Source: a virus
IMG/VR virus record: IMGVR_UViG_3300045988_109049
DNA: 64,000 nt
Direction: 5' to 3' (one strand)
The notes under the pieces are model-generated. The model made no database searches, had not been told where the DNA came from, and was given only the letters and a program-made list of their open reading frames with translations. Made by a program: the position numbers and the translations under genes. Shown here in pieces: positions 5,804 through 52,680 of the stretch. Position 1 is the stretch's first letter; every line of letters starts with the position of its first letter.

Positions 5804-6713
5804 CTTCAGTTGGTTGTTTTGTTATCTTACAGATGTTTATTCTGTAATTCTTTATGTTTCCATAAAGCACGGACTATATCTTCATCCTATAAGGATGTTG
5901 GGCACTCGTGGGTATATTATATTCTATTTTCATAGTTTCAATACCTAGTCTCTGAACCTTTTATAACCATTTAAGTTATAACTTGGCTGCTGATTGTCCC
6001 TACTTATTGAATTGTCACACACTTGCATATTCCCAGTAATAACCATATCTTTTCTGATGAGTTTTAATACCACTAATTATGTTAGCATCTTTCCTAATAT
6101 TTCCTAATTGTCTGGCAGCTTCTCTAATAGATTGGTAAGTATTTATAATATTACCATCATTATCTATTTGATTAATCTGTCTTTTATTAGGATTAGATTC
6201 TCTAAGTTTTAATCCTATTTTAACTGCTTTATTTCCATAACAGTTATTATAAGACTTAGTACACCATTCAAGATTTTCTACAGAATTATTAGTCTTATTT
6301 TCATCTTTGTGGTTTATACATTCCAAATTGTTAGGATTTGGAATAAAAGTATCAGCTACTATTCTATGTACTGCAATAGTTCTTTTCTTGTTAGTGTCAT
6401 CGTATAATTTCACTATAGGATAGCCACTACTATCAAGTACTGAGGATAAAGGTTTCAAAATGTTACCTTGCCTATAACTAAATACTTTACCACTTTTAGT
6501 TACTTTATAGCTTGGATATTCTCCAAATCTACTTTTAATATTAAATAGTTCTTCTTCCATATAATGTTTTTGTATAGATTTATATGTGCAAAGATACTAT
6601 AAATATTTGAATTATGCAAATTTTGTATCAATAATCTAACAGGATGTTCCAGCAATTCACCCAATTTATTATTCTTTAGTATTACTACTAAAGCGAGTCC
6701 CAATCTTTCGATT
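5804..6713 (-). mobile_element. Group I intron splitting the RNAP gene (boundaries +/- ~10 nt)
   Basis: Minus-strand core elements: P gaattgctggaaca (6645-6658), Q aatcagcagccaag (5982-5995), R ggttcagagacta (5946-5958), S agatatagtcc (5871-5881). These are followed by a GAAA-tetraloop hairpin (5850-5867) and a second hairpin (5827-5847). Contains an HNH ORF. Confidence 0.8.
6015..6560 (-). CDS. Intron-encoded HNH homing endonuclease
   Basis: INHKDENKTNNSVENLEWCTKSYNN is an HNH_3-type motif. The C-terminal IREAARQLG segment looks like a NUMOD/IENR-type DNA-binding repeat. The ORF lies between the P and Q elements of the intron. Confidence 0.75.
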   Translation of the reverse strand: MEEELFNIKSRFGEYPSYKVTKSGKVFSYRQGNILKPLSSVLDSSGYPIVKLYDDTNKKRTIAVHRIVADTFIPNPNNLECINHKDENKTNNSVENLEWCTKSYNNCYGNKAVKIGLKLRESNPNKRQINQIDNDGNIINTYQSIREAARQLGNIRKDANIISGIKTHQKRYGYYWEYASV

Positions 6714-9700: not shown

Positions 9701-11064
9701 TTTATGTCCCCATTCTTCTCATATACACTATCATTATCAAGTTGCATACCATTCTCATAGTTATCTCTCCAAGCATCAAGAAGGTAATATACACCTTCAG
9801 GCTTGTTAATAGCAATGGTTTGCATCTTGAATGTACCATCAAGCATCGTCTTTTTCTTCTGGATCCAATAGGGTATAAAATCCTTTCTAAAATCTTGATA
9901 GAACTGAGAAAATAGAGTATCATCTTTCTCAAGCAATTCTCTTACTTGAGCCACCCAGGGTTTATTCCTTTCAAGCTCCTGTATAAGAGGAATCATATCT
10001 TCAGAAGTAATCATATCTCTCAATTTATCAATAAGAGTTGCATGAACATAATCAGCATCTAAATACCTTAGATTACCCAAATCATCTTCCTCATACATTC
10101 CTTCATAGTCAAGCCTGGGTATTTCCCTAATAACTTTTCTAACTGCTTGAGATGATAATTCATGGGAACTAACTTGTCTAAAGTTAGTCATCCAGCCATC
10201 TTTAAAAGTCTCTTCCTTATTATAATCATCAGCTTGCTCATCAAGCTCACTGTATCCTTCAGGAGTATCATCATTTAAGTTAGCATCTTTAGGAGCAATA
10301 TAGTTCAAGTCAATTCTAACTCCTTCTGTCATTATGAGTAATGTGCTAGCTTCTTCTGCCAAAGGTTTAAAGTTATCAACAACTTTTCTATAAGCTTGTT
10401 CCTTATATACAGCTTTTCTTCTTGCAGCATCCAATTTTTGTTCATCAGAGAATCTTTCAGATTCATCTATAACACCCTCATCAATTAATGTCTGCTCTCT
10501 TGCATTTATTGCCCCAAGTTCAATTTGTACTCTATTCTCTTCTGTATCGTTGATATAGGATTGAAATATATCCAATACTCTATCAAATAATCCAGCAGGG
10601 GTGTATTTCTTTATGGCATCAAATCTATTAAGGGAGCTTAACTCCATCTGTAATTGTAATCTTTCTTCATCAGAAGCTGTATCCATTCTCTTATTAAGAG
10701 AATCATTCATTTCCTGTAGTGCTTTATCTACCTCATTACTAAAGAACCTTGCAATAAGACTTACTCTATCTCTTCTTGTTCTTGGATCAAAGTCTAAATC
10801 AACCTTAGCTTGTTCTTCAATAGAAGAGACCTTAGGAGCATCAAATGAAGGAGATAATGCTTCATCGAGCATCTCTACTGTATTTGCACTTCTTAGTTTA
10901 AATCTAAAATTATTAAGTTCTCTTACAGTAGGATACTCTTCAATAGATTTATTATTCTCTTTTTGCCACAAAGCTACAAGACCCTTTACAGATTCCTCTG
11001 TTTCATCTTGTAACTCCTTAGTTAGGTACCTAATCTCTTCAGTTGTTACTAAACAATTATTCAT
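6714..11064 (-). CDS. Giant virion-type RNA polymerase, exon 1 (N-terminal ~1450 aa)
   Basis: A 1450-aa ORF that ends in a stop immediately at the start of the intron sequence. It continues in frame with exon 2 after intron removal. Confidence 0.65.
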
Positions 11065-28379: not shown

Positions 28380-28954
28380 TTAAAGTCAAAACATTCTTGC
28401 GTTAGCAAATTTTGAAGCTCTTCCAATAATCCAAGAGCAATTTGGGCTTCTCTGGCAGATCTGAAAGCAGCGAAGTTTTTGTAATCCTTGATACATCCTT
28501 TTCTCAGGTTATAAACTTTCATACTAATTATATCTACCATATATATGTCAGGGCTATTACTAATATGATCTTCATAATTGGCATCTAGATCGATAGCTAT
28601 TTCCCTTAAGAACATAGTATATAGTGAAGCTGGACAAATATTAAGTAAGGTAAAAAGGAATTCCATAGAATTCTCTTCATTTAGACTGGATTTTTGGCAT
28701 ATTTTCCTAAGATAATACTCTACATCTTTTTCAGATTTAAGGGGTCCTTCTTCTAGATCTTCTCTCTCTACTATTAAACCTTTTTTAATTAGTTTACTTA
28801 TGCTATTAGAAAGTACAATAAATTCTTGAATTACAGAAAAGTAATCTCCCCTACGTACTCTTCTTATAACGTCACCCATTTTTACTTCTTCACCTGCTTT
28901 AGTGTAATACCTTTTCTTATTCATATTTTTCTGTTTAATGTCAATATTCTTCAT
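28376..28954 (-). CDS. Hypothetical protein
   Basis: ORF track. Confidence 0.4.
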   Translation of the reverse strand: MKNIDIKQKNMNKKRYYTKAGEEVKMGDVIRRVRRGDYFSVIQEFIVLSNSISKLIKKGLIVEREDLEEGPLKSEKDVEYYLRKICQKSSLNEENSMEFLFTLLNICPASLYTMFLREIAIDLDANYEDHISNSPDIYMVDIISMKVYNLRKGCIKDYKNFAAFRSAREAQIALGLLEELQNLLTQECFDFK

Positions 28955-29432
28955 ACCATTTTATGGAATACCCATAAATATCTCTTAATTTTTTATCTAT
29001 TTCATCAAATAGATAATGAGGCATCTTTGTCCCACTCCTTGCAAAGTATGCAGGATGCTCAATTTTTAAAATGTGATTAAATCTTTTATTAATATATAGA
29101 TCAAATGTTTGAGCTTGCTTACCGAATAATACATATATAATGGAACAAGAACATTCAGATAGATTCTTTAATAGTTTGGCTATGAATGGTCTCCAAACCA
29201 TGACATGAGAACCTATTTTATTCATCTCCACTGTGAGGGCAGAATTAATCATTAATATACCCTGCTTGGCCCAACTCTCTAAAGTTTGGTCAAAGATAAT
29301 ATTATTGTGGGGAATTTCAAAATCTATTACTGCTTCTTTTATCACTTGAAGAGAAGGAGATAAATTCTCTTCTAAGACTTCCTTCCTATTTCCAAATAAT
29401 ACACCAGTGGCTATTCCTTTCTGGGGATAAGG
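28941..29432 (-). CDS. ung: Uracil-DNA glycosylase (family 1-like), exon 2
   Basis: PYPQKGIATGVLF completes GQD|PY. Also present: NSALTVE..GSH, LFGKQAQ and EHPAYFARSG (compare HPSPLS). Confidence 0.8.
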   Translation of the reverse strand, partial: PYPQKGIATGVLFGNRKEVLEENLSPSLQVIKEAVIDFEIPHNNIIFDQTLESWAKQGILMINSALTVEMNKIGSHVMVWRPFIAKLLKNLSECSCSIIYVLFGKQAQTFDLYINKRFNHILKIEHPAYFARSGTKMPHYLFDEIDKKLRDIYGYSIKWYEEY

Positions 29433-30366
29433 CAATTTGTTACCCTAACAGCTCTTTATCTGTTAGTTCTATATGTTACCATATAGTTCGGACTATATCT
29501 TCATTGTTTACAATGCAGGGCACTCGTGTCAGGTTTATTATTTGAGCTATTCACCTGTTAGTCTCTGAACCTTCTACATACTTTTATGCTCTTCTGTAGC
29601 TTGGCTGCTGATTGACTCATTAAGTTGTTCCAGCAATTCACCCTGTTTATCCAGAACCCTTCTTTTACTATAAGTAATTAATTTATACTGCATAGATGGA
29701 ATAACAAAATCTTTAATCAGCTCTACAAATTTAGGAAAATCCTTAGCTTGCAGATACATACTATTATCATGCTTGCCTACAGTAAAATGTAAATCAAATT
29801 TATCTAATAATATATTAGCTAATAAAGATTGTTCTTCTAAAGTAAAAGAACAAGTAGATAAGATACATGAATTTTTAGTTACATAACCATCGTCCATATA
29901 CCATATAGCTAAACCTAAAGTATCCATATCTTTTACAAATTCTTCAAAAACTCTTTTATGACCATTAGAATCATAGTATTTTAATCTTATATTTGTAAAG
30001 ATAGGATGTAATCTAGATTTAAATCTATACCCTACTAATTCGTGTGAATATCTTTTATTATTTATATGATACTCAACTATAGGAGATACTAAATTATACT
30101 TATTTAGTATATTCCATTTATACTCAAGATATTCTTTTTGTTTTTCAGAATGTGCTATACTAAGACACATATTCTTAGTTTTACTTCCTACTGAACAAAA
30201 ACATCCATCTCCTAATAAACTTCCTATAAGAAGTTGTTTTAAGTCATTACCCATTTCTAAATCTTTATGATTCTTCATACTATCAAAATTTTTAATAGTA
30301 CAAAGATAAGGTATTTGACCTAATATTACAATACTTTAAGTAAATTATTTATAGTTACTTATTAAA
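29433..30366 (-). mobile_element. Group I intron in the UDG catalytic GQDPY motif
   Basis: The 5' exon ends in gaT (30367) and the intron ends in aaattG (29433). Q caatcagcagccaag lies at 29600-29613, R ggttcagagacta at 29559-29571 and S aagatatagtc at 29491-29501. These are followed by a GUAA hairpin, a second hairpin and ggtaacaaattg. Confidence 0.85.
29574..30278 (-). CDS. Intron-encoded LAGLIDADG homing endonuclease
   Basis: LLIGSLLGDGCF and LAIWYMDDGYV are the two LAGLIDADG motifs. Confidence 0.8.
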   Translation of the reverse strand: MKNHKDLEMGNDLKQLLIGSLLGDGCFCSVGSKTKNMCLSIAHSEKQKEYLEYKWNILNKYNLVSPIVEYHINNKRYSHELVGYRFKSRLHPIFTNIRLKYYDSNGHKRVFEEFVKDMDTLGLAIWYMDDGYVTKNSCILSTCSFTLEEQSLLANILLDKFDLHFTVGKHDNSMYLQAKDFPKFVELIKDFVIPSMQYKLITYSKRRVLDKQGELLEQLNESISSQATEEHKSM

Positions 30367-30552
30367 ATCCTGTCCCAGAAACACTACCTTCAAATCCTCG
30401 AATAGACATAACTTAAAAGCCCTAAACACATCAGTTTGCTTAGGGCATACAGACTTTATCATATACTCCTTAGATAATATATTCATTACATGATTAAGCT
30501 CTACTTTATCAATGACCTTCATCCAACCTCCAAAATATTCTTCTGTCGTCAT
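30367..30552 (-). CDS. ung: Uracil-DNA glycosylase, exon 1 (62 aa)
   Basis: Ends ...VVFLGQD. The next three codons and the stop are intronic. Confidence 0.8.
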
Positions 30553-31259
30553 TCCAGTGCTAGTAAATCGTCTATATTATTTTCTAAAAGATTATTTAGA
30601 GATTCATTTATATCTTCACCTTGAGGTGGAGGAATAGTCTTTATGAACTCTTCAGCATTATCTATTTTAACTTCCACTTGGCTTAGGTATCCATAATCTG
30701 CCAATTCCGAAAGGAATGCAGGAATAACCCTTTTAATTATATGTTTCTCTAATATACCTGGTCTATCTAACAAGAATAGTGTCGGAGACACATGTACTAC
30801 TATCTTTCTAGTAGGAGCTAACCTGCGATCCTTCAATACGTAACAGGAGTTAACCATTAGTAACATATTCATGCATCTATCTAATATTATTCCTCTGCAT
30901 CCATAGTACACCTGATCTTTACAAGACACTTTACTCAAGGAGAATGAATCAAATAAGGCTCTAATTAATGAGCTATTTCCTAATGCAGTATTCTCTTTTG
31001 AGTTTAAGAACACAGGAGTAACTATTCTACATTTTCTTGACAACAACTCATCTAACTTACTCCCAGATAGTTTAGAGAATCGGCTCCTCAGTATAGTGGG
31101 AATCTCTATATTCATATCCTCTTTTAGAGTAGCTTCAACAAGAATTCTATACGGGTTTGTATTGTTAATTCCATATAGTGGAGGGGCAGATACTGAGGGT
31201 CCACTAATTAATATTGCTTTGTGTAAGTCCTTTATATATTTTCCTGAAAAAATCATCAT
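30549..31259 (-). CDS. Hypothetical protein, last gene of the E2-like/JAB/E1 operon
   Basis: Start overlaps the E1 stop (31256-31259) and stop overlaps the UDG start (30549-30552). No motif recognised. Confidence 0.45.
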   Translation of the reverse strand: MMIFSGKYIKDLHKAILISGPSVSAPPLYGINNTNPYRILVEATLKEDMNIEIPTILRSRFSKLSGSKLDELLSRKCRIVTPVFLNSKENTALGNSSLIRALFDSFSLSKVSCKDQVYYGCRGIILDRCMNMLLMVNSCYVLKDRRLAPTRKIVVHVSPTLFLLDRPGILEKHIIKRVIPAFLSELADYGYLSQVEVKIDNAEEFIKTIPPPQGEDINESLNNLLENNIDDLLALE

Positions 31260-32206
31260 GATATAGTTTTAAAATACATAGTTTCTGCATTATATTCAGT
31301 ATAGAACGGAAGGTCCCTGTCTATAAGTGGATTACATTTATTTGCTATAAAATTGACAAACAAATTAACTATAACGGATCCAATCATATTAGCCATAAAA
31401 GTAGTTTGTTTATAACTGCATACAGTAGGATCGGCCTCAAAGTCTGAGAACAAATAAGGTTCATATCTTCGTATATTATCCATATCGTCTCCTTTTATAC
31501 AGAACACTTGAAATTCTTCTGCTGCCAATCTGCCATCTATAAACAGACATTCTTCTCGTCTTTCTTTGGGTAATTCTAACACCTTATCAGTCCAATTCTT
31601 AAAAGCATCTTTTCTAGCTTTCATATTATCGAACCCACAAATAGTTATTCCAGTTATGGTTGAAGAGGTATCCAGTTTTTTAGTTAAAGCTGAAACACTA
31701 TAATAGTCTGAATAATTTTCTATCATATCTGCTATAGCATTTGCCTTATAAAGACCTATTTGAGACTTACTATATAACTGTCCAGACAAATTAACTGTTT
31801 CTACCTTATCTGGGTCATATAAAGTTAGTGACCTGACATCCATTCTAGATAACATAAATACTACATAGCTTCCTATCCCTCCTAATCCAGCTACAGTAAT
31901 ATTTTGCTTAAGTATCTTATCGAACCAAAGGGCAGAGCTAAATCTCGATGTTTCTTCTTTTATTAATAAGGTCTCAGAATTTTCAGGAATTTTATCTATA
32001 ACCAAATCCTGATCTATTAGTGCAGATATTAACATAGAATGTTCTTCTTCATTAAGATAAAATCTACTACCTTCTACAGTAATTTCACTAACAAATTCTC
32101 CATCCATAATAACTTGCCTAATACTGGAAATAGCCTTTCCTTTGATTAACTCTATTAAGTCTCCTACAGGTAGTGATTCATTAGTGTTTTGATCTAAGCT
32201 TTTCAT
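31256..32206 (-). CDS. ThiF/MoeB/E1-like adenylyltransferase
   Basis: ITVAGLGGIGSYVVFML is the GxGxxG loop. LTLYDPDKVETVNLSGQLY corresponds to DxDxVexSNLxRQ with Gly in place of Arg. Also GLYKANAIA and ICGFDNMKARKD (DNxxxR). A Cys lies in PTVCSYKQT. Confidence 0.7.
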   Translation of the reverse strand: MKSLDQNTNESLPVGDLIELIKGKAISSIRQVIMDGEFVSEITVEGSRFYLNEEEHSMLISALIDQDLVIDKIPENSETLLIKEETSRFSSALWFDKILKQNITVAGLGGIGSYVVFMLSRMDVRSLTLYDPDKVETVNLSGQLYSKSQIGLYKANAIADMIENYSDYYSVSALTKKLDTSSTITGITICGFDNMKARKDAFKNWTDKVLELPKERREECLFIDGRLAAEEFQVFCIKGDDMDNIRRYEPYLFSDFEADPTVCSYKQTTFMANMIGSVIVNLFVNFIANKCNPLIDRDLPFYTEYNAETMYFKTIS

Positions 32207-32221
32207 ATTATCATTTCTCCT

Positions 32222-33406
32222 TTAAAAAATATAATCACTTAATATTTTAATACATTCTTCTATGTATATATTACTATCAAGCTTCTCTAATTCTTCTTTG
32301 ATTGCAGTAGCACATAATGTAACTATCTCATCATTATCCACTCCTTGTCCAACCAAATCCTCATCTATTGTATACCAACACAGGAATTCTATAAATCCTT
32401 CAGCCCACTTCTTGAACATCTCCAGTCCTTCTTCTCCCTTCCCAAATCTTCTTTCATATATAGGTATCATTCCTGCTACCCAAGATTTTATATTTATTTT
32501 ACTTTCTCTAGGGATAACCACACTTCCTGTTACCAATTGAAGGGTTAAAGACTTTGCCAGACCTTTATTAAAACTATACTTCTTTGTATCATCTCTAAAT
32601 TTTAAAGTCTGCTGTCTCTGACCTAAATCATCTTCTTCCATTAGATTATATATATCCTTTTGTGTCAATGGTTCAAACTTGGAAAAAGGCTTATACGTGT
32701 GAAGAGGAGGATCAAATCTACTATTTATTTTCTGAATCTTAGACTCCTCTATCTCTTTAAGTCTGGATTCTAACTCTGTATATTCACTACACCCTTCTAC
32801 TTCTATATCAAGATAGTAATATTCCAATTCCTCAGTATTAGTTCCTTCAAAATTTCGAACTTCCTTGATTTGGGTGTTACCAAAACTAGGATAGCAGAAA
32901 CTTTCCACAATACACTTGTTAACCAATCTTCTAGTTATGGCTGCTGTATAATTCCCTCTATTATTAACTATTAAGGAAACAAAGTGATTTCTATCCAATC
33001 CTTCCTCTTTCAGAGTTCTTATATCTGTTCCACTGAAGAAGGTATCCATGTTATTATGTGAATGGATTAATCCCATATGACAATCTAGCAGCTCAGGGTT
33101 GTTCGCTACATAACTGCATACATCAGGAGACATATCAAACTCCGTATAAGCAGAACTTCCGATATCCATAACACATATATCTTCACATTTTATGATTAGA
33201 CTTCTATCTTCAAAGGATCCCTCAGATGTAAAAAATAGAACTCCAGACCACTCATCTTTCCATACCTTTCTACATATGTATCTTATTTTTTCTTCTACTT
33301 TCTTCGGTATTATCATTTTATAAGTAGTAGAATTCTTGGTCATCTGAATTATTTGTTCCTCTGCTTTTTTCTGACTCATCTCTGAGACTTGATTTATTCC
33401 TTCCAT
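32222..33406 (-). CDS. JAB/JAMM (MPN+) metalloprotease domain protein with unknown ~200-aa C-terminal region
   Basis: DEWSGVLFF supplies the conserved Glu. HSHNNMDTFFSGTD is an exact HxHx7SxxD JAMM motif (about 33023-33064). The true start may be a downstream ATG (33379, 33343 or 33316). Confidence 0.7.
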   Translation of the reverse strand: MEGINQVSEMSQKKAEEQIIQMTKNSTTYKMIIPKKVEEKIRYICRKVWKDEWSGVLFFTSEGSFEDRSLIIKCEDICVMDIGSSAYTEFDMSPDVCSYVANNPELLDCHMGLIHSHNNMDTFFSGTDIRTLKEEGLDRNHFVSLIVNNRGNYTAAITRRLVNKCIVESFCYPSFGNTQIKEVRNFEGTNTEELEYYYLDIEVEGCSEYTELESRLKEIEESKIQKINSRFDPPLHTYKPFSKFEPLTQKDIYNLMEEDDLGQRQQTLKFRDDTKKYSFNKGLAKSLTLQLVTGSVVIPRESKINIKSWVAGMIPIYERRFGKGEEGLEMFKKWAEGFIEFLCWYTIDEDLVGQGVDNDEIVTLCATAIKEELEKLDSNIYIEECIKILSDYIF

Positions 33407-34631
33407 ATTTACAATTTACTAATTTTAATATTCTATTCAATAAAAAACCTATTATATCTGGATTTAAGATGGTAGTAACATAATTATTAATATTATCTCC
33501 TTCTGTTATATGAACTACTACTTCTTTCCCCTTAAATGTGCCCATCACTCCTAGATTAGATCTATTAATCTCTAAAACATCCCGGGTATTAGTAATTCTG
33601 TAAATACTATCCTTAAATACAAATACCTTGGTTAAAATATTTTCTAGAGACTCTTCCTCTTTTCTTATAATTCCTTTTTGATATATATATCTTCCTTTGG
33701 TATTAAACCAAGTGATAAATTCATTACTTACTAGTAGTATAAATTTCGTTATATTCATACCAATAGAGTAACCCCCATTTTTGTAATTGAAGATAAGTTT
33801 TTTCTGTTCTATGAAATATTTAATGAAATCATAAACCATAGGCTTCAAACATGATGGTATATATACCGAATCATTAAGACCGATATGATCTGTTTTAACA
33901 CTTCTGTTAGAAGCCACCTCCTCTAATCTCCTATAAGGACCTCCACTTAGGGATTCTGTTGCTACATACTTCTCCAATTCTACACAAAACAGTCTCCAAA
34001 TATCCAAATCATAAAGAACATTCAAGGAATTTACTGTATTTCTTATAGGACCACTTCCCAAACATACTTGAAGAAACTCTTTAGGGTTCCTCTTTGGTAT
34101 TCCACATACATGGGAATGCATATAGTCACAAAAATACTGTGTCATTGTATATTCCCCTCTATTAAGAAGGAAGGATCCTACCATAGTACCGTCCATATCT
34201 ATTGTTACTTTGACATATAGTTCAGTAATATCTATAAAATGATCATATTCATTACTAACTCTTACTTCTGGGAAATATACTATGATGTGAGACTGTATCT
34301 TACTCCCTAATTTCAATATTACCTCATCCAGAAGATCCCTAATGCTAGGGATACTACTTAGAATTTCATCAGGTATGTCCTTTATTAATTGTATATTAGA
34401 CATTTTTTTCTTTAACCTGGATGACTCCTCAGTGCCCAGTGCTGTTTCAATACTTATATTATCATAAGTTTTCGAGAATTCCTCTTCTATTTCTGAAATG
34501 GTAGGAACATCTTGTAAGTCTACCTTATCTTCTCCAAAGAAATCTTCGAATATTTCTAATACACTTGTTATATTTCGTAAACGTTCCTTACATATTGCTT
34601 CTATAACTTTCCTAGTTTTTTCCCCTATCAT
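33318..34631 (-). CDS. Candidate E2/UBC-like protein (437 aa)
   Basis: A beta-rich stretch is followed by YMHSHVCGIPKRNPKEFLQVCLGSGP. This resembles the UBC HPN...G.ICL catalytic region (about 34050-34125). It sits directly upstream of the JAB and E1 genes. Confidence 0.35.
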   Translation of the reverse strand: MIGEKTRKVIEAICKERLRNITSVLEIFEDFFGEDKVDLQDVPTISEIEEEFSKTYDNISIETALGTEESSRLKKKMSNIQLIKDIPDEILSSIPSIRDLLDEVILKLGSKIQSHIIVYFPEVRVSNEYDHFIDITELYVKVTIDMDGTMVGSFLLNRGEYTMTQYFCDYMHSHVCGIPKRNPKEFLQVCLGSGPIRNTVNSLNVLYDLDIWRLFCVELEKYVATESLSGGPYRRLEEVASNRSVKTDHIGLNDSVYIPSCLKPMVYDFIKYFIEQKKLIFNYKNGGYSIGMNITKFILLVSNEFITWFNTKGRYIYQKGIIRKEEESLENILTKVFVFKDSIYRITNTRDVLEINRSNLGVMGTFKGKEVVVHITEGDNINNYVTTILNPDIIGFLLNRILKLVNCKYGRNKSSLRDESEKSRGTNNSDDQEFYYL

Positions 34632-34641
34632 ATCATATAAT

Positions 34642-34674
34642 AAAAAAAAAGCAGGTAAGAAGAATCTTACCTGC
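34642..34674 (-). terminator. Intrinsic terminator between the Ubl-like gene and the E2-like gene
   Basis: Perfect 9-bp stem gcaggtaag/cttacctgc (34651-34659 and 34666-34674), followed on the minus strand by T9. Confidence 0.7.
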
Positions 34675-34691
34675 TAGTAAACAAACCTTTA

Positions 34692-35321
34692 TCAAACAAA
34701 ATCAAACATTTCATCAATCTCATCATCTGAGTAGGTGGAGAGCTCTTTTTTTGGCTTTACAGTGTTAGAGAAGTACTTACCATTAAGAATATTAGTAGCC
34801 TCCTCTCTTTCCAAAATTTCAGCATCTACCAAAGAGTCTAATAGGCATTTAATAGAGGTTTTCAATGAAGTTACTTCTTTCTCTAAATCACCTTTAGGAG
34901 CTTCTTTCTTAGATGTAGAACCGTGATGCTCTTCAACCAGTTTCAGAAGATCTTCAGATTTACACAGAGTATAATTTTTCCCGTACTTTCTAATACAGGC
35001 ATCCTCCAAGTGATATTCTTTTATACTATTGTAAATCTCTTTTCTATTTACAGCTCCAGATCTAATCTTTTTATTAGGAGAAGTCAACATGAACACAAGC
35101 TCATTAGTAGTCTGTCCTTTATAAAGGACATCATGAGGAAGAATAGAATCATTATTGATTAATTCAGTTTTTGAAAGTCCTTCATAGAATGTCATGTCAT
35201 GATAATTTACGCCTGATCTATCCAGATCTCTCTTCAGTTCCCCTAATGTAGTAGCACTAGACATAATTACTTTTTTCTCTTGTGTTCTCGTAGATACGAT
35301 TGTGATTTTTCTTGCTTCCAT
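34692..35321 (-). CDS. Candidate beta-grasp (ubiquitin-like) N-domain protein with helical middle and acidic C-terminal tail
   Basis: Residues ~5-88 (KITIVS..KKVIMS..TTLGELKRDLDRSGV..MTFYEG..ELVFMLTSPNKKIRSG) follow the beta-beta-alpha-beta-beta ubiquitin pattern and end at Gly. The protein tail is DDEIDEMFDFV. Confidence 0.35.
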   Translation of the reverse strand: MEARKITIVSTRTQEKKVIMSSATTLGELKRDLDRSGVNYHDMTFYEGLSKTELINNDSILPHDVLYKGQTTNELVFMLTSPNKKIRSGAVNRKEIYNSIKEYHLEDACIRKYGKNYTLCKSEDLLKLVEEHHGSTSKKEAPKGDLEKEVTSLKTSIKCLLDSLVDAEILEREEATNILNGKYFSNTVKPKKELSTYSDDEIDEMFDFV

Positions 35322-35365: not shown

Positions 35366-36367
35366 TTATTTTTCGAATAATTCTTTCATTATTTTAATGA
35401 AGTCATTCTTGTCTTGAAGAGAATGATAAAGGCCTGATATATCATTATCTCCTTCGAATTTAGGTAATATCAAATTAGTAAATCCTGTGGATTTAGCCAG
35501 TTTCTCCCCATCTATAAGTCCTGCTTCATCATTATCAAATAATATGAATATCCTTTTATACCTTCTTTTAAGCTCATTAATAGCTGTGTTGCTTATTCTA
35601 TAGCCTTCTCCCTGAACAGCTAAGGATGGAATTCCGGTATTAGCCCATAAGCAAAGAGCGTCTTTTACAGAAGAACATATGCATACTGAATCTCCATATT
35701 CAGGTATTTTTGTCCACAAACTAATTACAGACAAGTCATGTTTGTTACTCCATTTATAACCATCTTTGTTAAATGGTTGGTAAATCTTCAAAGTAACCTT
35801 TCCTTCTTTACGTTCTACATACGCATAGGCATATTTATCTGCTGCATACACTCTTCTCACTCCATCCTTTATCACGATCTTATGAGATATAGGATAAACA
35901 TCAGCATATTTTAACCATTCCAGACTCACTCCAAAGGATTCCCAGTACTCTATATCATGTTTCCTCCACTCTCTTATTTTGCATTGTAAGTCAATTGACT
36001 TATTATAACTTTTAGTAGTAATTATACTGCAGGAATTATAAGGTCTTATATTAGAATTATTAGAGAATCTAAGCATATCCTTATCTATTCTTTCTAAAAC
36101 TTCTACATATGATATCCCCCATAGTTTAGACAGAAGGTCAAATAATCCTCCTCTGTCTCCTGTAGATAAATCAACATAAAATATTCTCTTTCCATCTCTA
36201 GAGTATAACCCAAAAGAAGGTCTTTTATCTTCTCTGAGAGGAGAATTTATTATACAAGGTATTTCAGTGATACCCAAATAAAAGTATAGAATACTAGATT
36301 CTGTTGTTTTCTTCAATATGTCCTCTAAGCTAATTGAAGATCTTCCAGAAATAAATGGCATATTCAC
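35366..36367 (-). CDS. DnaG-like Toprim primase
   Basis: VCICSSVKDALCLW and ILFDNDEAG are Toprim E...DxD motifs. The gene sits in the replication module. Confidence 0.65.
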   Translation of the reverse strand: MNMPFISGRSSISLEDILKKTTESSILYFYLGITEIPCIINSPLREDKRPSFGLYSRDGKRIFYVDLSTGDRGGLFDLLSKLWGISYVEVLERIDKDMLRFSNNSNIRPYNSCSIITTKSYNKSIDLQCKIREWRKHDIEYWESFGVSLEWLKYADVYPISHKIVIKDGVRRVYAADKYAYAYVERKEGKVTLKIYQPFNKDGYKWSNKHDLSVISLWTKIPEYGDSVCICSSVKDALCLWANTGIPSLAVQGEGYRISNTAINELKRRYKRIFILFDNDEAGLIDGEKLAKSTGFTNLILPKFEGDNDISGLYHSLQDKNDFIKIMKELFEK

Positions 36368-37817: not shown

Positions 37818-38078
37818 TTAATAAGCTAAAATTGTTTTGTTATTACTATCTCTTATTTCTACTATATTTAATTTATTCTTGTAGTACTCTAGTATTTCAG
37901 TAAAGCATCTATCCGCTACACCAATGCTAAAAAGGATTGTAATAAAACATTTTGTTAATTCTGTATCTTTATTATGTTCTACACAACAATACTCTAGGAA
38001 CAACTCCATCATAGCTGTTCTAGTTAGTTTCCCTCCTGCATTGTTATTTATTATTTTAACTACGGTTTCCCTATCCAT
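37818..38078 (-). CDS. Hypothetical small protein
   Basis: ORF track. Confidence 0.4.
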   Translation of the reverse strand: MDRETVVKIINNNAGGKLTRTAMMELFLEYCCVEHNKDTELTKCFITILFSIGVADRCFTEILEYYKNKLNIVEIRDSNNKTILAY

Positions 38079-38445
38079 AAATCTCCTTTAACTTATCTAC
38101 TATTATAGATAAATCATTAGGGATCTCATCAGGAAGATCATCCAATGCCCCAAGACTGTCTTTAGCAGGATACTCCCCGTCAAATTCTTTCACAAAGTGT
38201 TTAATGGGTTTTTTATTCTCTGCGTCATATCCTACCTTGCCAAATAGAATAATATCGAACTTACCTTCAGGTGTTATATAGTCATCCACCATCTTTCCAG
38301 TAGTCTTAAACTTATAAGAAATGGAATCACCATTTTTATCTTTATACTCCTCATAGTGGGCACAACAGATAATATTCTTATTCTCCGGGAATCCCTTAAA
38401 GGCATCAAATATAAGACCCACACCATAGCCAATCTGCTTAGGTGT
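38071..38445 (-). CDS. AAA_24/Sak4-like RecA-family ATPase, exon 2
   Basis: TPKQIGYGVGLIF... continues exon 1 in frame after intron removal. The combined length of ~256 aa is typical for this family. Confidence 0.6.
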   Translation of the reverse strand, partial: TPKQIGYGVGLIFDAFKGFPENKNIICCAHYEEYKDKNGDSISYKFKTTGKMVDDYITPEGKFDIILFGKVGYDAENKKPIKHFVKEFDGEYPAKDSLGALDDLPDEIPNDLSIIVDKLKEIYG

Positions 38446-39420
38446 CATTTTGTTACCCTAAAGGCTTTTTATCCTTTAGTTCTATAGTTTCTTGCATTGT
38501 TACCATAGTTCAGCATACATTTTCATCCTCTAATTGAGGAGTCGGATACTCTTGGATACATTATATTCTCTATATAATAGAGGTTCAGTATCTATGCGTT
38601 ACACTGTGCAGTCCTTTTATCTACTGCATTTAGCACGGTATTAAGTGCTTTATCCCTTTTTCTTTTCAAAAACACTGTAGCATCTTTATACAGATAGTCA
38701 AAGATAGCTTTTCTTACTTTTATACTATAACTAAAATGTAAACTCCAATAGGGAGTGGTCTTTCTATTCTCTTTATAGATTACCCATTTTAGTTCAGGTA
38801 TAGCTGTTAAAAACCTATCTTTAATTTGCTCTGCAAATTTAGGTGAGTTACAAATCATACTGAAATGTCTATCACCAATAGACCCATCTCCATCCATAAA
38901 ACCTCTTATGAAATCTCTTTCATACTCCTGAGGTATATTAGGAAATTCAAAATCAGAATCATAAGTTTTTCTTGGTTGTATATTATATAAAGACCTTAAA
39001 TCATTTATAAGTTCCTTATCACATATTTGAAGAATAGTAGTTTGTTTCCTATTACCACTAGGTTGATAATATCTAAGATTGTTATCAGGAGCTATCTCTC
39101 TCTGTATTAATCTTAAAATTTCATCATCTTCAGATACACATCCAAATCTCAATCTTATTAATTTACTAGGTCTGTCTTTTCTTACTGATTCTTCTATAGA
39201 ACCATCAGCTACTAAATAGCCTAAAATATAGGCTTTAACTTCAGAGTCGATTATTTTAAAATAATCACTTTTGTGTTCCTTCTTATTAGGAATAAAGTCT
39301 CTCATATTATTTATATTTTGGTTGGCAAATATATAAATAATTTATGAGATATGCAATACCCTTCACCGTTTTTACCCGATTATTTTCACATAGATTGCTC
39401 TATGCAGGGACACACATTCT
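38446..39420 (-). mobile_element. Group I intron in the ATPase gene (divergent family member)
   Basis: The 5' exon ends in gaT (39421) and the intron ends in ggtaacaaaatG (38446). The 3' hairpin architecture is the same as in the UDG intron. The P7 halves are changed together: gcata (38593-38597) and tatgc (38513-38517). Confidence 0.7.
38592..39305 (-). CDS. Intron-encoded LAGLIDADG homing endonuclease
   Basis: ILGYLVADGSI and FIRGFMDGDGSI. Confidence 0.8.
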   Translation of the reverse strand: MRDFIPNKKEHKSDYFKIIDSEVKAYILGYLVADGSIEESVRKDRPSKLIRLRFGCVSEDDEILRLIQREIAPDNNLRYYQPSGNRKQTTILQICDKELINDLRSLYNIQPRKTYDSDFEFPNIPQEYERDFIRGFMDGDGSIGDRHFSMICNSPKFAEQIKDRFLTAIPELKWVIYKENRKTTPYWSLHFSYSIKVRKAIFDYLYKDATVFLKRKRDKALNTVLNAVDKRTAQCNA

Positions 39421-46100: not shown

Positions 46101-46661
46101 ATGGAGTTATACAAACAGAAAAGAAAACTAGTAACTGTCACTTGTGATTACTGTAGAGAGAGTTTCTCTAAACCAGAATCAGAGTATAAAAGAAATATTA
46201 AATTAGGCAGACATAACTTTTGTTCAAGGTCTTGTTGCGGTAAATACATTGCATCTCTCAACAAGCCTCTTACTCAAGCTCAAATAGGGTCTAGAAACTC
46301 TATAAGAAACTATAGTAGTAATAGAAATGATGAGTACACACCATTTAGAGAAATTCTAAGAACCGTAAGAAACAGGTGTAAAGAATTTAATCTAGATTTA
46401 CCTTATCTTGTGGAACTTTGGAACTCACAAAATGGTATTTGTCCTTATACAAGACTTAAACTTGTTTTACCTACTTGGAATACTAATCCTGACATAAGAT
46501 ATAGAGCTTCACTTGACAGAATAGATTCTTCTAAAGGATATATTAAAGGTAACGTGCAATTTGTTGCGACTCCTATCAATTATCTTAAAGGAACTATGTC
46601 AGATGAGACTACTAAAGCTTATCTCAGAGAAATTGCCGCTTCTATTTTCATAGAAGATTAG
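46101..46661 (+). CDS. Free-standing HNH endonuclease on the opposite strand to all neighbours
   Basis: GICPYTRLKL...ASLDRIDSSKGYIKGNVQFVATPINYLKG is an HNH core. There is an N-terminal CxxC...C..CC zinc-finger-like region. A TAacTTTG box lies about 25 nt upstream. Confidence 0.65.
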   Translation: MELYKQKRKLVTVTCDYCRESFSKPESEYKRNIKLGRHNFCSRSCCGKYIASLNKPLTQAQIGSRNSIRNYSSNRNDEYTPFREILRTVRNRCKEFNLDLPYLVELWNSQNGICPYTRLKLVLPTWNTNPDIRYRASLDRIDSSKGYIKGNVQFVATPINYLKGTMSDETTKAYLREIAASIFIED

Positions 46662-46900
46662 ACTATATCATCACCTCAATAATTTGAGGGTAGGACGCTC
46701 AAGCTGGTAATTAAGGAGACTGTACTCCTCCAGTAGTCGTTGCACTTTCATTAGGTGTACCTAATGCTTAGCTCAGGATTGGCATGATAAAAGCTAGTTC
46801 TGAGCTTTTATTTTAGCGTTCCCTGAGTTCATCCTATTTTGTAAATACTATCACTAGTAAGCGGGTCCGAACTTAAACCCTCGTCTTACTAACTTTTAAT
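46600..46900 (-). ncRNA. ORF-less group I intron-like ribozyme core without identifiable coding exons
   Basis: Minus-strand elements: P gaactcaggg (46821-46830), P5 hairpin (about 46788-46810), Q aatcctgagc (46771-46780), P6 hairpin (46750-46765), R caacgactac (46733-46742), S gatatagtc (46661-46669), GAAA hairpin (46639-46656). P and Q pair perfectly (CUCAGG/CCUGAG). The ends are not defined. Confidence 0.6.
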
Positions 46901-47732
46901 AAAAGAATTTCACATGTTTACCACTTTGATATGTAGTAGGTTCTCTACTGGGGTCAACCGATAGTTGACAGATCCACCACTCTATTTAATCTAATAGAGA
47001 AATCTTCATAAGGAGTTATAAGAATTAAAATTGAAGGGTCACACCCTCTGCATACACCAGGCAGCTTGCTCCTAACTAATAAACAAACTATATATAATAT
47101 TAAAGGTGTATTGAAAGTAGGTATAGCCTTATTAACTTCCTTCTTGACCCTATTATTCACCTTTCTGTTTCCAAGCAGGTGAGGCTCAGCCTACAAGTTA
47201 GGCGGCAGCTCTATAAGTGTTGCCAGTTAAAGTTTTGATGTCTTTCCATCAGTCTTTACATGTTCTCTTACCAAATAATTAGCAATCAAAACCAAATCAT
47301 GCCCCATATTATAGTGGAAGAAGTTGTTAATACTGATTTTTTTTTGCTGTATGTAACATCTTCTTCCACCTATAGTCAATCTCTTTTCATTTTTCTTACT
47401 TTCTTTCCAGATTTCATTTTCTCTGTCTTTTTCACCTGGAGTTCTTCATTACTGTAATCATTAATATTTATTCTTTTCATTTTTCTATTTCGTCTTACTG
47501 AAAAATAACTTGAATATTGTTTTCCAAATACCGGATCTTTGTTTCTCAGGCTGTTGAGTGTTCTCCATTGCAGTCTTTCTGTTATAGTTTACACTCTTCT
47601 TCCCTACTGTGATAAAGACAGTATTTGTCTTGTCATTTGAGTCTTTCCTAGATAGGGCTGTCTTCTTCCTTAGTAAATCTTCTTTTAGTTGTCATTTTCT
47701 TTAGAATTGGTTAAAAATATAAATAGTTATAG

Positions 47733-47804
47733 TGGCTCCTCCCAGATTCGAACTGGGATTAGAGGCTTAGAAGGCCACTGTTCTTTCCATTGAACTAAGG
47801 AGTC
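47733..47804 (-). tRNA. tRNA-Arg (anticodon UCU)
   Basis: Hand-folded cloverleaf. Acceptor GACUCCU/AGGAGCC has one A-C mismatch. D arm GUUC/GAAC. Anticodon loop CUUCUAA. T arm CCCAG-UUCGAAU-CUGGG. No encoded CCA. Confidence 0.7.
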
Positions 47805-47959: not shown

Positions 47960-48031
47960 CACTCCTAATAGGAATCGAACCTATATCTACTCTCTAGAAG
48001 AGAATTGTTCTATACATTGAACTATAAGAGT
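47960..48031 (-). tRNA. tRNA, best fold gives anticodon UCU (Arg)
   Basis: Acceptor ACUCUUA/UAGGAGU, D arm GUUC/GAAC, anticodon stem AUUCU/AGAGU with loop CUUCUAG, T arm AUAGG-UUCGAUU-CCUAU. Confidence 0.6.
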
Positions 48032-52576: not shown

Positions 52577-52680
52577 TATATTTTGCTCCCTTCTTCCAAT
52601 GATTAGGAAATCAGTTTTGTACTCTGAGAATAAAGGTTTGAATCCTTTAGGGAGCTCTAAACTTTAATAGTTTACAAATA

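Follow-up and report, generated by a model that had tools for sequence, protein, structure and literature searches.

A block of five genes among the replication genes of a crAss-like phage appears to encode a self-contained pathway for processing and activating a ubiquitin-like (Ubl) protein, one that is fixed in the replication block of Steigviridae and Fipvunavirus, a reading to which we give a probability of roughly 0.55. The combination of a Ubl, an E1-like enzyme and a JAB protease, without a recognisable E2, suggests a virus-encoded protein-tagging system. Steigviridae are very abundant crAss-like phages of the gut, and the cassette is conserved within their DNA-replication genes. A literature search found no paper that describes it, in keeping with an earlier reading made without database searches (the sequence-only reading), which was aware of no such cassette characterised in a crAss-like phage replication module.

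The window is a stretch of 64,000 nucleotides (IMG/VR record IMGVR_UViG_3300045988_109049). Its closest record is cr128_1 (Steigviridae), at 77% nucleotide identity, which bears out the earlier assignment to a crAss-like phage. Five minus-strand ORFs lie at positions 30549-35321 and are flanked, also on the minus strand, by the genes for a DnaG-type primase upstream (35366-36367; PHROG DNA primase 1.7e-41; Pfam Toprim_2) and UDG downstream (28941-30552). The UDG gene carries a group I intron (Rfam Intron_gpI, 85.9 bits, 29469-29716) with a LAGLIDADG gene inside; its two halves align to positions 16-67 and 68-202 of phrog_12143, and the region has Pfam UDG and LAGLIDADG_2 matches. The cassette genes that the sequence-only reading had placed between primase and UDG were recovered as ORFs, and their placement within a replication and recombination module holds. 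Their translational coupling, also proposed, is real in part: ATGA overlaps join the gene for a 236-residue protein to those for E1 and UDG on its two sides, and the genes for a 437-residue protein and JAB overlap by 89 nt, with the JAB start Met kept in 75 of 80 homologues. The coupling is uneven, however, with 15 nt between the JAB and E1 genes and 60 nt between the genes for the 209- and 437-residue proteins. Within those 60 nt is a strong terminator-like hairpin (34650-34675, minus strand; 11-bp stem, T9 tail). A hairpin and T-run occur at the equivalent position, with differing stem sequences, in 45 of 73 distinct related loci, including that of the Flavobacterium phage FpV4, and would make the transcript of the 209-residue protein commoner than those of the enzymes.

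The gene adjoining the primase (34692-35321, minus strand) encodes the 209-residue precursor, Ubl-X, which consists of an N-terminal ubiquitin-like beta-grasp, a conserved tail ending in Gly and a conserved C-terminal domain (X) with an acidic tail; its homologues form more than 5,100 90% clusters. In the AlphaFold model (mean pLDDT 76) residues 1-80 fold as a ubiquitin-like beta-grasp, the order being beta-beta-alpha-beta-beta...beta, and Foldseek against the PDB returned ubiquitin variants, UBX, SUMO1 and the bacterial Ubl 8tyx_A (E values of 5e-4 to 5e-3, probability 1.0). Model and search thus agree on the beta-grasp that had been suspected at this N-terminus. The Ubl domain proper (residues 1-89; 35055-35321, minus strand) terminates in K84-K-I-R-S88-G89, where K84, S88 and G89 are invariant even in the FpV4 homologue at 29% identity, and the tail is modelled as disordered (pLDDT <50 at residues 84-90). 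The motif K-x-[IVL]-[KR]-S-G is present in 76 of the 81 ORFs that match the Ubl-X family; three of the other five are separate X halves of split genes and two are one-residue variants. In three loci (L014, L018 and L029) a homing-endonuclease gene interrupts the Ubl-X gene two codons past Gly89, so that the Ubl stands alone, with SG-KF or SG-IC at its end. These natural variants indicate that the covalent Ubl-X link is dispensable and that the junction is a true domain boundary.

The X domain (residues 90-209; 34695-35054, minus strand) has no Pfam family. Its model shows three short helices, a variable linker, a helical region and the conserved acidic tail S-x-Y-S-D-D-E-I-D-x-M-F, and its conserved residues are E95, I100, K101, K115, T118, L125, L128 and E201. 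On visual impression, residues 93-134 resemble an HeH/SAP motif and the tail resembles SSB-type acidic tails.

The JAB/JAMM metallopeptidase (394 residues; 32222-33406, minus strand) exceeds the Pfam Prok-JAB cutoff (E 2.8e-6; 27.6 bits, cutoff 25). The JAB domain spans about residues 30-165, and the remainder is a 230-residue C-terminal extension. The JAMM site is complete (E52, H115-x-H117-x7-S125-x-x-D128), and at least 97% of the 80 homologues compared keep each of these five residues. Its closest matches of known structure are weak (E 0.011-0.17) and include P. furiosus JAMM1 (E 0.011), an Rpn11-like protein and CSN5.

The E1-like adenylating enzyme (316 residues; 31256-32206, minus strand) has a variable N-extension (residues 1-87) and a single ThiF/UBA5-type adenylation domain (88-305) that matches Pfam ThiF (E 6.7e-18; 65.1 bits, cutoff 28.1). 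By sequence it is related to the Ubl-activating enzymes UBA5 (the best match in a single-sequence PDB search, 6e-7), Cap2 (PADLOC, E1 domain, 8.5e-13) and BilD (PADLOC, 8.8e-8). It contains the motifs G107-L-G-G-I-G112, Y130-DPDKVETVNL and D193-NMKAR198. Residues R88, G107/G109/G110, D131, D133, K154, D193, R198 and C263 are invariant, and the invariant ATP-site set comprises the G-loop, ribose Asp, Lys, Mg-Asp (DN..R) and N-terminal Arg. Position 142, however, is Gly across the whole phage family, whereas the Arg of N-L-x-R-Q is kept in the aligned MccB and UBA5, so full adenylation activity is not assured. Conserved CxxC pairs, the zinc site of ThiF, MoeB and UBA5, are absent from the phage E1. 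C263 may correspond to the catalytic Cys of UBA5, judging by the UBA5 sequence and a non-significant alignment segment. Locus scans with the family's own conserved peptides placed all closer relatives of the enzyme within the same phage cassette, rather than among MoeB/ThiF enzymes with unrelated neighbours; remoter ThiF-family matches, from phages and plasmids, have unrelated surroundings, among them CBASS and a MoaD/YcaO cluster. The JAB and E1 assignments of the sequence-only reading are therefore upheld, and the motifs it quoted for these and the 437-residue protein are all in place, the Pfam ThiF and Prok-JAB scores arguing that they are not chance occurrences.

The same reading had described the 437-residue protein (33318-34631, minus strand) as E2-like, citing the segment H172-S-H174-V...Q-V-C190-L-G, an assignment that fails here. 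None of 28 members of the family matches UBC or Prok-E2 models, NCBIfam and PADLOC returned nothing, the family profile finds no E2 in the PDB, and hhalign probabilities are no higher than 1% for UBE2D2 or for Cap2. Foldseek, run on a reasonable model (mean pLDDT 75), likewise finds no E2, the best PDB match having an E value of 0.8 and the BFVD matches being confined to its own family. As far as these tools can see the protein has no UBC-like fold; none of the tests run supports an E2, and it is instead an orphan family of 571 homologues, about 360-445 residues each, all from contigs of roughly 95 kb. A variable helical N-domain, a conserved central domain and a C-terminal alpha/beta domain make up the protein. 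The conserved core (residues 112-233; 33933-34298, minus strand) runs in the order helix, four strands, H-x-H, Cys-bearing loop and two helices, and only residues 117-240 are aligned by tblastn with Flavobacterium phages. The family's invariant core is Y-x-H-S-H...C-x-G...E-S; scored over very divergent homologues, including those of FpV4, L095 and L097, the invariant residues are N127, R158, Y170, H172, S173, H174, C190, G192, E226, S227, G230 and P232. C190 and E1 C263 are the two invariant cysteines of the block.

The fifth conserved member, the 236-residue orphan (30549-31259, minus strand), has 411 representatives at 50% clustering, each of about 230-260 residues, and no Pfam or PDB match. 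Its conserved residues are Y118, Y119, G120, G123, D127, P159 and F162, with no conserved Cys or His. In FpV4 and L097, the protein after E1 shares by eye the motif Y-x-G-x-G-[IFY]-I with it.

About 80 IMG/VR loci are not truncated by a contig end, and essentially all of them keep the five-gene order, as do 11 MAG contigs, crAss001 (gp79-gp75), cr128_1, a bajarodcaudo virus and FpV4. Searches by tblastn with the Ubl, the 437-residue protein and E1 retrieved the identical 74 records out of 50,697 phage records. With this strict synteny and identical phyletic distribution the genes behave as one module, of which no cellular version was found. Because the block keeps its place among the primase, UDG, Sak4 and helicase genes, it more likely serves the phage as a housekeeping system than as an accessory anti-defence one.

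From these parts we infer the following chemistry. The 209-residue product would be made as a Ubl-X fusion, probably in excess over the enzymes given the terminator-like hairpin after its gene. JAB would cleave past the invariant ...K-I-R-S-G89, giving a Gly-ended Ubl and a separate X protein. The E1-like enzyme would adenylate Gly89, and the Ubl may next sit as a thioester on Cys263. The Ubl could go straight to a target amine, as happens in the archaeal SAMP and Thermus TtuB systems, which have no E2, or could pass via Cys190 of the 437-residue protein acting as a non-UBC analogue of an E2/E3, and JAB could additionally undo the conjugation. Candidate targets are proteins of the replisome, those of recombination, or a host factor on which replication depends. 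Several features count against this scheme: the Ubl tail ends S-G where G-G might be expected, no E2 is recognisable, E1 has lost the N-L-x-R-Q Arg, and its profile matches the peptide-modifying enzymes MccB and PaaA as well as it does UBA5.

It is also conceivable, though unlikely, that JAB just cuts a Ubl-X polyprotein, as in ubiquitin-ribosomal protein fusions or as proposed for lambda gpI/gpK, and that no conjugation takes place. The beta-grasp would then be a solubility or assembly chaperone or a non-covalent adaptor, X would be the real replication factor and E1 would either bind the Ubl or have another substrate to adenylate. The loss of the normally invariant Arg from E1 and the lack of any E2 found in the cassette are consistent with this, as is the nature of X, a conserved domain with a conserved acidic tail: since the sequence beyond Gly89 is itself a conserved domain, Ubl-X could act uncleaved. 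The fusion occurs in FpV4 and all distant loci and is ancestral, and lambda tail assembly likewise pairs a Ubl that has a C-terminal domain with a JAB but with neither E1 nor E2 (PMC1779556). However, the other ATP-site residues of E1 and Cys263 are invariant over very wide divergence, which argues for catalysis, E1 is never missing from the block in the loci surveyed and the Gly-ending tail is retained in the split variants.

Sulfur transfer is a distinctly doubtful alternative to Ubl conjugation. The Ubl would be a carrier of the ThiS/MoaD/TtuB type, trimmed by JAB and adenylated by E1 to form a thiocarboxylate, with the Cys of the 437-residue protein as a persulfide relay, and the sulfur would thiolate a nucleotide, tRNA or cofactor during infection. 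The best NCBIfam matches of E1 are indeed ThiF models (9.5e-20 and 2.7e-16), but they score well under the curated cutoffs (71 against 159 bits); GenBank labels E1 homologues 'thiamine biosynthesis protein', and triads of JAB, E1 and Ubl without an E2, which was not found in this cassette either, are typical of such operons (PMC1779556). The top 50 Foldseek matches of the Ubl, however, are of ubiquitin, SUMO, UBX and DIX types, none of them carrying a ThiS or MoaD description, and no annotated locus has a rhodanese, cysteine desulfurase, PP-loop or ThiG/MoaE-like neighbour. The Ubl is, moreover, fused to a conserved 120-residue domain and ends S-G.

There is little probability that E1 instead follows MccB/PaaA-like chemistry, adenylating a protein or peptide C-terminus so that the product is non-canonical (a peptidyl-nucleotide, a cyclised C-terminus or a protein-nucleotide link, for example) and not one protein joined to another. 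By family profile, MccB (9.8e-11) and PaaA (4.5e-10) are among its best solved relatives, level with UBA5 (2e-10), but the alignment extends over profile positions of about 90-180 only, the generic nucleotide-binding half. The minimal FpV4 enzyme, of 228 residues, lacks an N-terminal peptide-clamp domain, the block contains no short precursor-peptide gene, and the cassette itself encodes a genuine beta-grasp whose Gly tail is conserved.

Least probable is counter-defence against host Ubl immunity (Bil, CBASS type II), with JAB removing host Ubl marks from the proteins of the phage and with the phage Ubl and E1 serving as decoys or tagging host defence proteins. Phage structural proteins are known targets of host Ubl systems (PMC11601596), and Cap2/BilD and Cap3-type proteins are relatives of E1 and JAB, but that resemblance is confined to common superfamily domains. 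Genes for anti-defence tend to be variable and accessory, whereas this block is constant in position and content in every related genome, within core replication genes.

The proposed processing and activation system shares with the archaeal SAMP/UbaA/HvJAMM1 and Thermus TtuB/TtuC/JAMM systems a small Gly-ended beta-grasp, a single-domain ThiF/MoeB-type E1, a JAMM peptidase and the lack of a recognisable E2, and, by sequence, no solved structure is closer to the phage JAB than that of P. furiosus JAMM1. Those systems are cellular, and in them the Ubl is a sulfur carrier as well; the phage block has its Ubl fused to the X domain and ending S-G, two extra conserved orphan proteins and an E1 without the N-L-x-R-Q Arg. 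The UFM1 pathway also resembles it, in that its Ubl precursor needs C-terminal trimming to a single Gly and that UBA5 has a single adenylation domain, with the Cys apparently in the crossover loop, but it is eukaryotic, with a dedicated E2 (UFC1) and an E3, and has no JAMM protease.

The gene content had earlier been likened to CBASS, Bil, Bub and PRTRC, and the block belongs to none of these. CBASS type II is approached through the E1 adenylation domain (PADLOC E1-E2 models) and weakly through JAB (PADLOC Cap3-type, 0.0017), but Cap2, an E2-E1 fusion, works without a separate Ubl and conjugates the CD-NTase itself, and the phage block has no CD-NTase, effector or E2 domain. PRTRC is likewise a multi-gene block of mobile elements, with a ThiF-type E1, a JAB, a Ubl, extra uncharacterised proteins and DNA-handling genes nearby; PRTRC_ThiF, however, gives the phage E1 35.8 bits against a cutoff of 144.75, and the PRTRC A, B, C, E, F and ParB models have no matches in the cassette. 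Bil (BilA-D) also combines Ubl, JAB and E1 in a single operon and conjugates without an E3 (PMC11601596), and its likeness extends to the BilD match of E1 and the Foldseek match of the Ubl to 8tyx_A, but it is a host-encoded defence with a true UBC-type E2 (BilB). The gpI (TAPI) and gpK (TAPK) proteins of lambda and T1 are, like the crAss block, phage-encoded, with a Ubl that has a conserved C-terminal Gly, a linker and a second small domain, and that Gly is the predicted cleavage site of the JAB (PMC1779556). E1 is missing from the lambda pair, which belongs to a tail-assembly module and has its JAB fused to an NlpC/P60 peptidase, whereas the crAss-type block includes an E1 and lies in a replication module.

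Five minus-strand genes between the primase and UDG genes of this crAss-like phage (Steigviridae) form a cassette (30549-35321) encoding a ubiquitin-like (Ubl)/E1/JAB system with a fusion precursor and two orphan partners. The ORFs encode Ubl-X (209 aa; 34692-35321), in which an N-terminal Ubl (residues 1-89) is fused to a part termed X (residues 90-209), a 437-aa orphan (33318-34631), a JAB protein (394 aa; 32222-33406), an E1-like protein (316 aa; 31256-32206) and a 236-aa orphan (30549-31259). The cassette is flanked upstream by a DnaG-type primase gene (35366-36367, minus strand; PHROG 1.7e-41) and downstream by the UDG gene (28941-30552, minus strand), which is in two parts. Genes for a Sak4-like annealing protein, a PD-(D/E)XK/exonuclease VIII-like nuclease and a resolvase-like protein are found nearby, with RNR also among the neighbours. 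The G+C content of the cassette region is ~32% and the strand bias is constant throughout; elsewhere in the window, the coding strand and GC skew flip near 49-50 kb, where the G+C content falls to 29%. Among GenBank records, that of the crAss-like phage cr128_1 (Steigviridae, Mahlunavirus) is closest, with 77% nucleotide identity.

The last 89 nt of the gene for the 437-aa protein are also the first 89 nt of the JAB gene, in another frame (33318-33406), and an overlap of ~50-125 nt is also present in cr128_1, the cultured phage crAss001 and the Flavobacterium phage FpV4. The JAB start Met, 89 nt inside the upstream gene, is kept in 75 of 80 homologues. A programmed frameshift joining the two proteins was rejected because both this Met and the C-terminal Y-L of the 437-aa protein are conserved, with JAB in the +1 frame. 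Between the Ubl-X gene and the four enzyme and orphan genes lies a terminator-like hairpin with an 11-bp stem and a T9 tail (34650-34675, minus strand). A hairpin and T-run occur at the same place after the Ubl-X gene in 45 of 73 distinct related loci, with differing stem sequences, and this positional conservation suggests that transcripts of Ubl-X outnumber those of the enzymes.

Several genes of the window are, or appear to be, interrupted by mobile elements. A group I intron (29469-29716; Rfam, 85.9 bits) with a LAGLIDADG homing-endonuclease ORF (29574-30278) divides the UDG gene between a 65-aa N-terminal part (30355-30552) and a 164-aa C-terminal part (28941-29435, minus strand); the same interruption is found in only ~12 of 86 related loci. 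A second group I intron (5850-6093, minus strand; 54.4 bits), with an HNH endonuclease ORF (6015-6560, minus strand), separates ORFs of 1450 aa (6712-11064) and 973 aa (2949-5870), which look like the halves of one very large gene. A third (46639-46908, minus strand; 86 bits) is adjacent to a 186-aa ORF (46101-46661, plus strand) that looks like an HNH-type endonuclease. In the region 38071-39305 (minus strand), the Sak4-like annealing protein is apparently truncated, as its 125-aa ORF covers positions 112-211 only of the PHROG model; a 237-aa endonuclease ORF (phrog_4645, 1.6e-38) adjoins it, so that a mobile endonuclease seems to have split this gene as well. The window also carries three tRNA genes (47733-47804; 47960-48031, minus strand; 52585-52656, plus strand).

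Of 80 IMG/VR loci retrieved through the E1, essentially all that are uncut by a contig end keep the gene order p308 - primase - Ubl-X - 437-aa protein - JAB - E1 - 236-aa protein - UDG. The cassette order is the same in crAss001 (gp79 to gp75), cr128_1, bajarodcaudo virus 1 and FpV4 (gp53 to gp49), although in the last the UDG gene is relocated beside the primase gene. In tblastn searches of 50,697 phage records, Ubl-X, the 437-aa protein and the E1 each matched the same 74 records with an identical organism breakdown, namely Steigviridae, Fipvunavirus and two unclassified phages; the E1 search gave three additional distant ThiF matches, and prototype crAssphage is absent from the 74 records. 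A scan of prokaryotic genomes, one per species for 185,579 species, revealed 11 loci; all of these are the same phage block on MAG contigs, and a cellular origin of the cassette was therefore rejected. Divergent copies of the whole cassette were seen on two very long MAG contigs, one of 639 kb (L095, Bacilli MAG) and one of 374 kb (L097, Puia sp. MAG), possibly as crAss-like elements that are integrated or were mis-assembled. The ThiF matches on plasmids belong to CBASS or to a MoaD/YcaO cluster and are unrelated to the cassette.

A beta-grasp protein with a conserved Gly tail, an E1 whose active site is almost complete and an intact JAMM peptidase are inherited together here, a combination characteristic of systems in which the C-terminus of a Ubl is exposed and activated. 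The reading we favour, with a probability of roughly 0.55, is processing and activation of the phage Ubl followed by its transfer to a target, each chemical step of which we infer. The JAB protein would cut Ubl-X after Gly89 and the E1 would adenylate this residue, with a thioester on C263 possibly formed next. The Ubl could pass straight to its target, as happens in the E2-less SAMP and TtuB systems, or could alternatively travel via C190 of the 437-aa protein; the JAB protein may also reverse the conjugation.

The AlphaFold model of Ubl-X (mean pLDDT 76) contains a beta-beta-alpha-beta-beta...beta domain at residues 4-80; residues 1-80 are modelled at pLDDT 78-92, while residues 84-90 are disordered and followed by helices. 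Foldseek searches of the PDB with the Ubl matched ubiquitin variants, UBX, SUMO1 and DIX domains and the bacterial Ubl 8tyx_A (E 5e-4 to 5e-3, probability 1.0), with target-normalised TM-scores of 0.45-0.72 among single-domain matches, so that model and search both give a beta-grasp fold. The Ubl fold ends K84-K-I-R-S88-G89, where K84, S88 and G89 are invariant even in the FpV4 homologue (29% identity). The motif K-x-[IVL]-[KR]-S-G is present in 76 of the 81 ORFs matching the Ubl-X family; the other five are three separate X halves of split genes and two one-residue variants. The motif ends in S-G, not G-G, and G89 is internal in most genomes. Conserved positions of X are E95, I100, K101, K115, T118, L125, L128 and the acidic tail Y-S-D-D-E-I-D-x-M-F. 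No Pfam family matches this domain, and its resemblance to HeH/SAP is a visual impression that Pfam does not support.

G89 is also a natural split site. In three contigs of related phages the Ubl-X gene is split two codons past the invariant S-G (L014, 3473-4008; L018, 3697-3947; L029, 3320-3800), such that the Ubl ORF terminates S-G-K-F* or S-G-I-C* and X reopens as its own ORF beginning M-N-T-N-N-M-T-R-T-E-A-Y. The insert in L014 is an HNH/NUMOD-type homing-endonuclease gene, from its translation read by eye, and the site in L018 and L029 holds such a gene or its remnant; an intron was rejected, as there is no Rfam intron at the split. These contigs are of full-genome size (96-98 kb), so Ubl and X apparently need not be covalently joined, with Gly89 a true module boundary. 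Two residues beyond the Gly of the Ubl are as expected for a precursor that a peptidase would trim.

The candidate for such trimming, the JAB protein, matches Pfam Prok-JAB (PF14464) with 27.6 bits against a cutoff of 25. The residues of its JAMM zinc site, E52, H115, H117, S125 and D128 (E...H-x-H-x7-S-x2-D), are those of the family signature and are conserved in 80 JAB homologues. The nearest solved sequences are JAMM1 of P. furiosus and Rpn11-like proteins, with weak E-values of 0.011-0.12, and the C-terminal extension of 230 aa is without assignment. Processing only, with release of the Ubl and no conjugation, would draw on this same junction and peptidase; beside the E1 that is inherited with them, it is a rather unlikely account of the cassette.

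The E1-like protein matches Pfam ThiF (PF00899) with 65.1 bits against a cutoff of 28.1 (E 6.7e-18), in agreement with the model for the E1-like superfamily (ThiF/MoeB/UBA), and its homologues in FpV4 and crAss001 match ThiF too. The G-loop (G107/G109/G110), the ribose Asp D131, K154, and the Mg-binding D193 with R198 of its D-N-x-x-x-R motif each show at least 97% conservation among 85 sequences. R88, D133 and C263 are likewise conserved among the 85 homologues, C263 being invariant; it may correspond to the crossover-loop Cys of UBA5 (Cys250), ThiF (Cys184) and MoeB (Cys187), judging by a non-significant alignment segment. Judged from these residues, the predicted active site is almost complete. 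The exception is the Arg of the N-L-x-R-Q motif, an ATP phosphate contact, which the whole phage family lacks.

The relationships of this protein bear on two further alternatives. A sulfur-carrier pathway, in which the Ubl and E1 would serve sulfur transfer, is unlikely. The E1 matches the ThiF, MoeB and UbaA models of NCBIfam, together with PRTRC_ThiF and Ube1, every one of them far under its cutoff, and is a superfamily member that falls outside all curated families. No conserved CxxC pairs were found in the E1 family. Chemistry like that of MccB is improbable. In searches of the PDB the family profile is nearest to MccB, UBA5 and PaaA (each ~1e-10) and the single sequence is nearest to UBA5 (6e-7). 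Gly142 (31781-31783) occurs throughout the phage family at the position where the aligned MccB and UBA5 have the N-L-x-R-Q Arg. In PADLOC the E1 matches the E1 half of Cap2 (8.5e-13) and BilD (8.8e-8).

The 437-aa protein has 571 detectable homologues, all from crAss-sized contigs. Its core comprises residues 112-233, while the N-terminal helical domain is variable or absent, and N127, R158, Y170, H172, S173, H174, C190, G192, E226, S227, G230 and P232 are invariant in very divergent homologues. The sequence-only reading had made this protein a UBC-like E2, and this central claim was not borne out. No UBC or Prok-E2 model of Pfam matched any of 26 family members (E up to 10) or the FpV4 and crAss001 homologues (E up to 1), and there was no E2 match in NCBIfam or PADLOC. 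The family profile found no E2 in the PDB, only weak YbbR matches (E 0.14), and hhalign gave probabilities of 1.1% against UBE2D2 and 0.25% against a plasmid Cap2. With the structural model, whose central domain has a pLDDT of ~70-95, the best Foldseek match in the PDB had an E-value of 0.8 with no E2 in the top 50, and BFVD returned its own family only. The rest of the sequence-only interpretation stands, and the motifs it quoted for the cassette were all found, with the residue numbers it had assigned.

The order of elements in the model is a helix, four strands, H-x-H, a loop with the Cys, and two helices, which is weakly compatible with a UBC core and is not a fold match. Y170-x-H172-S-H174 lies 16 residues ahead of the invariant C190, and the invariant residues could equally fit a catalytic Cys with an adjacent His or an H/H/C metal site, possibly with E226 as a further ligand. 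A four-ligand zinc site of H172, H174, C190 and C216 was rejected because C216 is Leu in FpV4.

The 236-aa orphan is represented by 411 proteins at 50% clustering, all of similar length. No match was found in Pfam or the PDB and the family contains no conserved Cys or His. The possibility that an E2 is hidden in this protein was rejected on this ground and because hhalign against UBE2D2 and against the 437-aa family was null. By eye, the E1 of FpV4 and of L097 is followed by a protein that has a Y-x-G-x-G-[IFY]-I motif like that of the 236-aa family.

We tentatively extend the favoured reading of processing, activation and transfer to a possible scheme in which Steigviridae and their Flavobacterium-phage relatives run their own Ubl conjugation during infection. 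The Ubl would be carried as a thioester by the 437-aa protein, whose fold would be new and unlike UBC, making it an analogue and not a homologue of E2/E3; the modifier would be freed from its fusion with a replisome-associated protein and attached to replication proteins of the phage or to proteins of the host. The fixed place of the cassette in the replication block argues for such a housekeeping role in the phage cycle over an accessory anti-defence role, and the same fixed position makes counter-defence, in which the cassette would act against host systems, the least probable of the alternatives.

Prokaryotic Ubl systems are currently seen as serving host defence (CBASS, Bil), plasmid biology (PRTRC) or sulfur transfer. 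Here, a complete-looking set of Ubl, E1 and JAB proteins with two orphans is a fixed feature of the replication module throughout a family that is among the most abundant phages of the human gut. If conjugation occurs, these phages would be tagging with a Ubl for their own life cycle, and the system could uncover a conjugating enzyme unrelated to UBC; should the 437-aa protein prove to be the thioester carrier, viruses of bacteria would be seen to encode a Ubl system for housekeeping, and with it a conjugating enzyme of a new class. Without conjugation, the system would still be a new use of E1/JAB/beta-grasp chemistry. The question of conjugation is directly testable in cultured members: crAss001, which grows on B. 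intestinalis, and DAC15 and DAC17, which grow on B. thetaiotaomicron. The database records examined give names to individual genes only: 'thiamine biosynthesis protein', 'metalloprotease domain containing protein' or 'E1 enzyme family protein'. No paper describing the cassette was found in the literature on crAss phages with ubiquitin, ThiF or thiamine; the genes are unmentioned in the Crassvirales review and Yutin 2021, and a gut-phage protein family similar to UBA5 is noted briefly in a 2026 preprint. The only phage Ubl case in the literature searched is the lambda tail-assembly Ubl/JAB pair.

The phage block is not a member of the known bacterial systems with which it shares components. For PRTRC, the E1 scores 35.8 bits with PRTRC_ThiF against a cutoff of 144.75, and the PRTRC A, B, C, E, F and ParB models had no match among the six proteins scanned (the five cassette proteins and the primase). 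It is not a type II CBASS, as the phage E1 is single-domain, with no E2-E1 fusion and, by its neighbours, no CD-NTase. Bub systems are defined by a DUF6527 protein (BubE) and Ubl-E2 or E2-E1 fusions (PMC11601596), and no Pfam match to 6E/DUF6527 or to such fusions was found in any of the five cassette proteins. Bil systems are defined by a BilD-type E1 (IAD-AAD-CYS) and a BilB E2 (PMC11601596); the phage E1 matches the adenylation core of BilD only partially (8.8e-8), no E2 match was found, and the E1 of FpV4 is 228 aa in total. In its proposed mode of working, the phage block is most like the E2-independent SAMP/UbaA/JAMM system of archaea and TtuB of Thermus; the architecture of its precursor most resembles that of the lambda gpI/gpK pair (PMC1779556).
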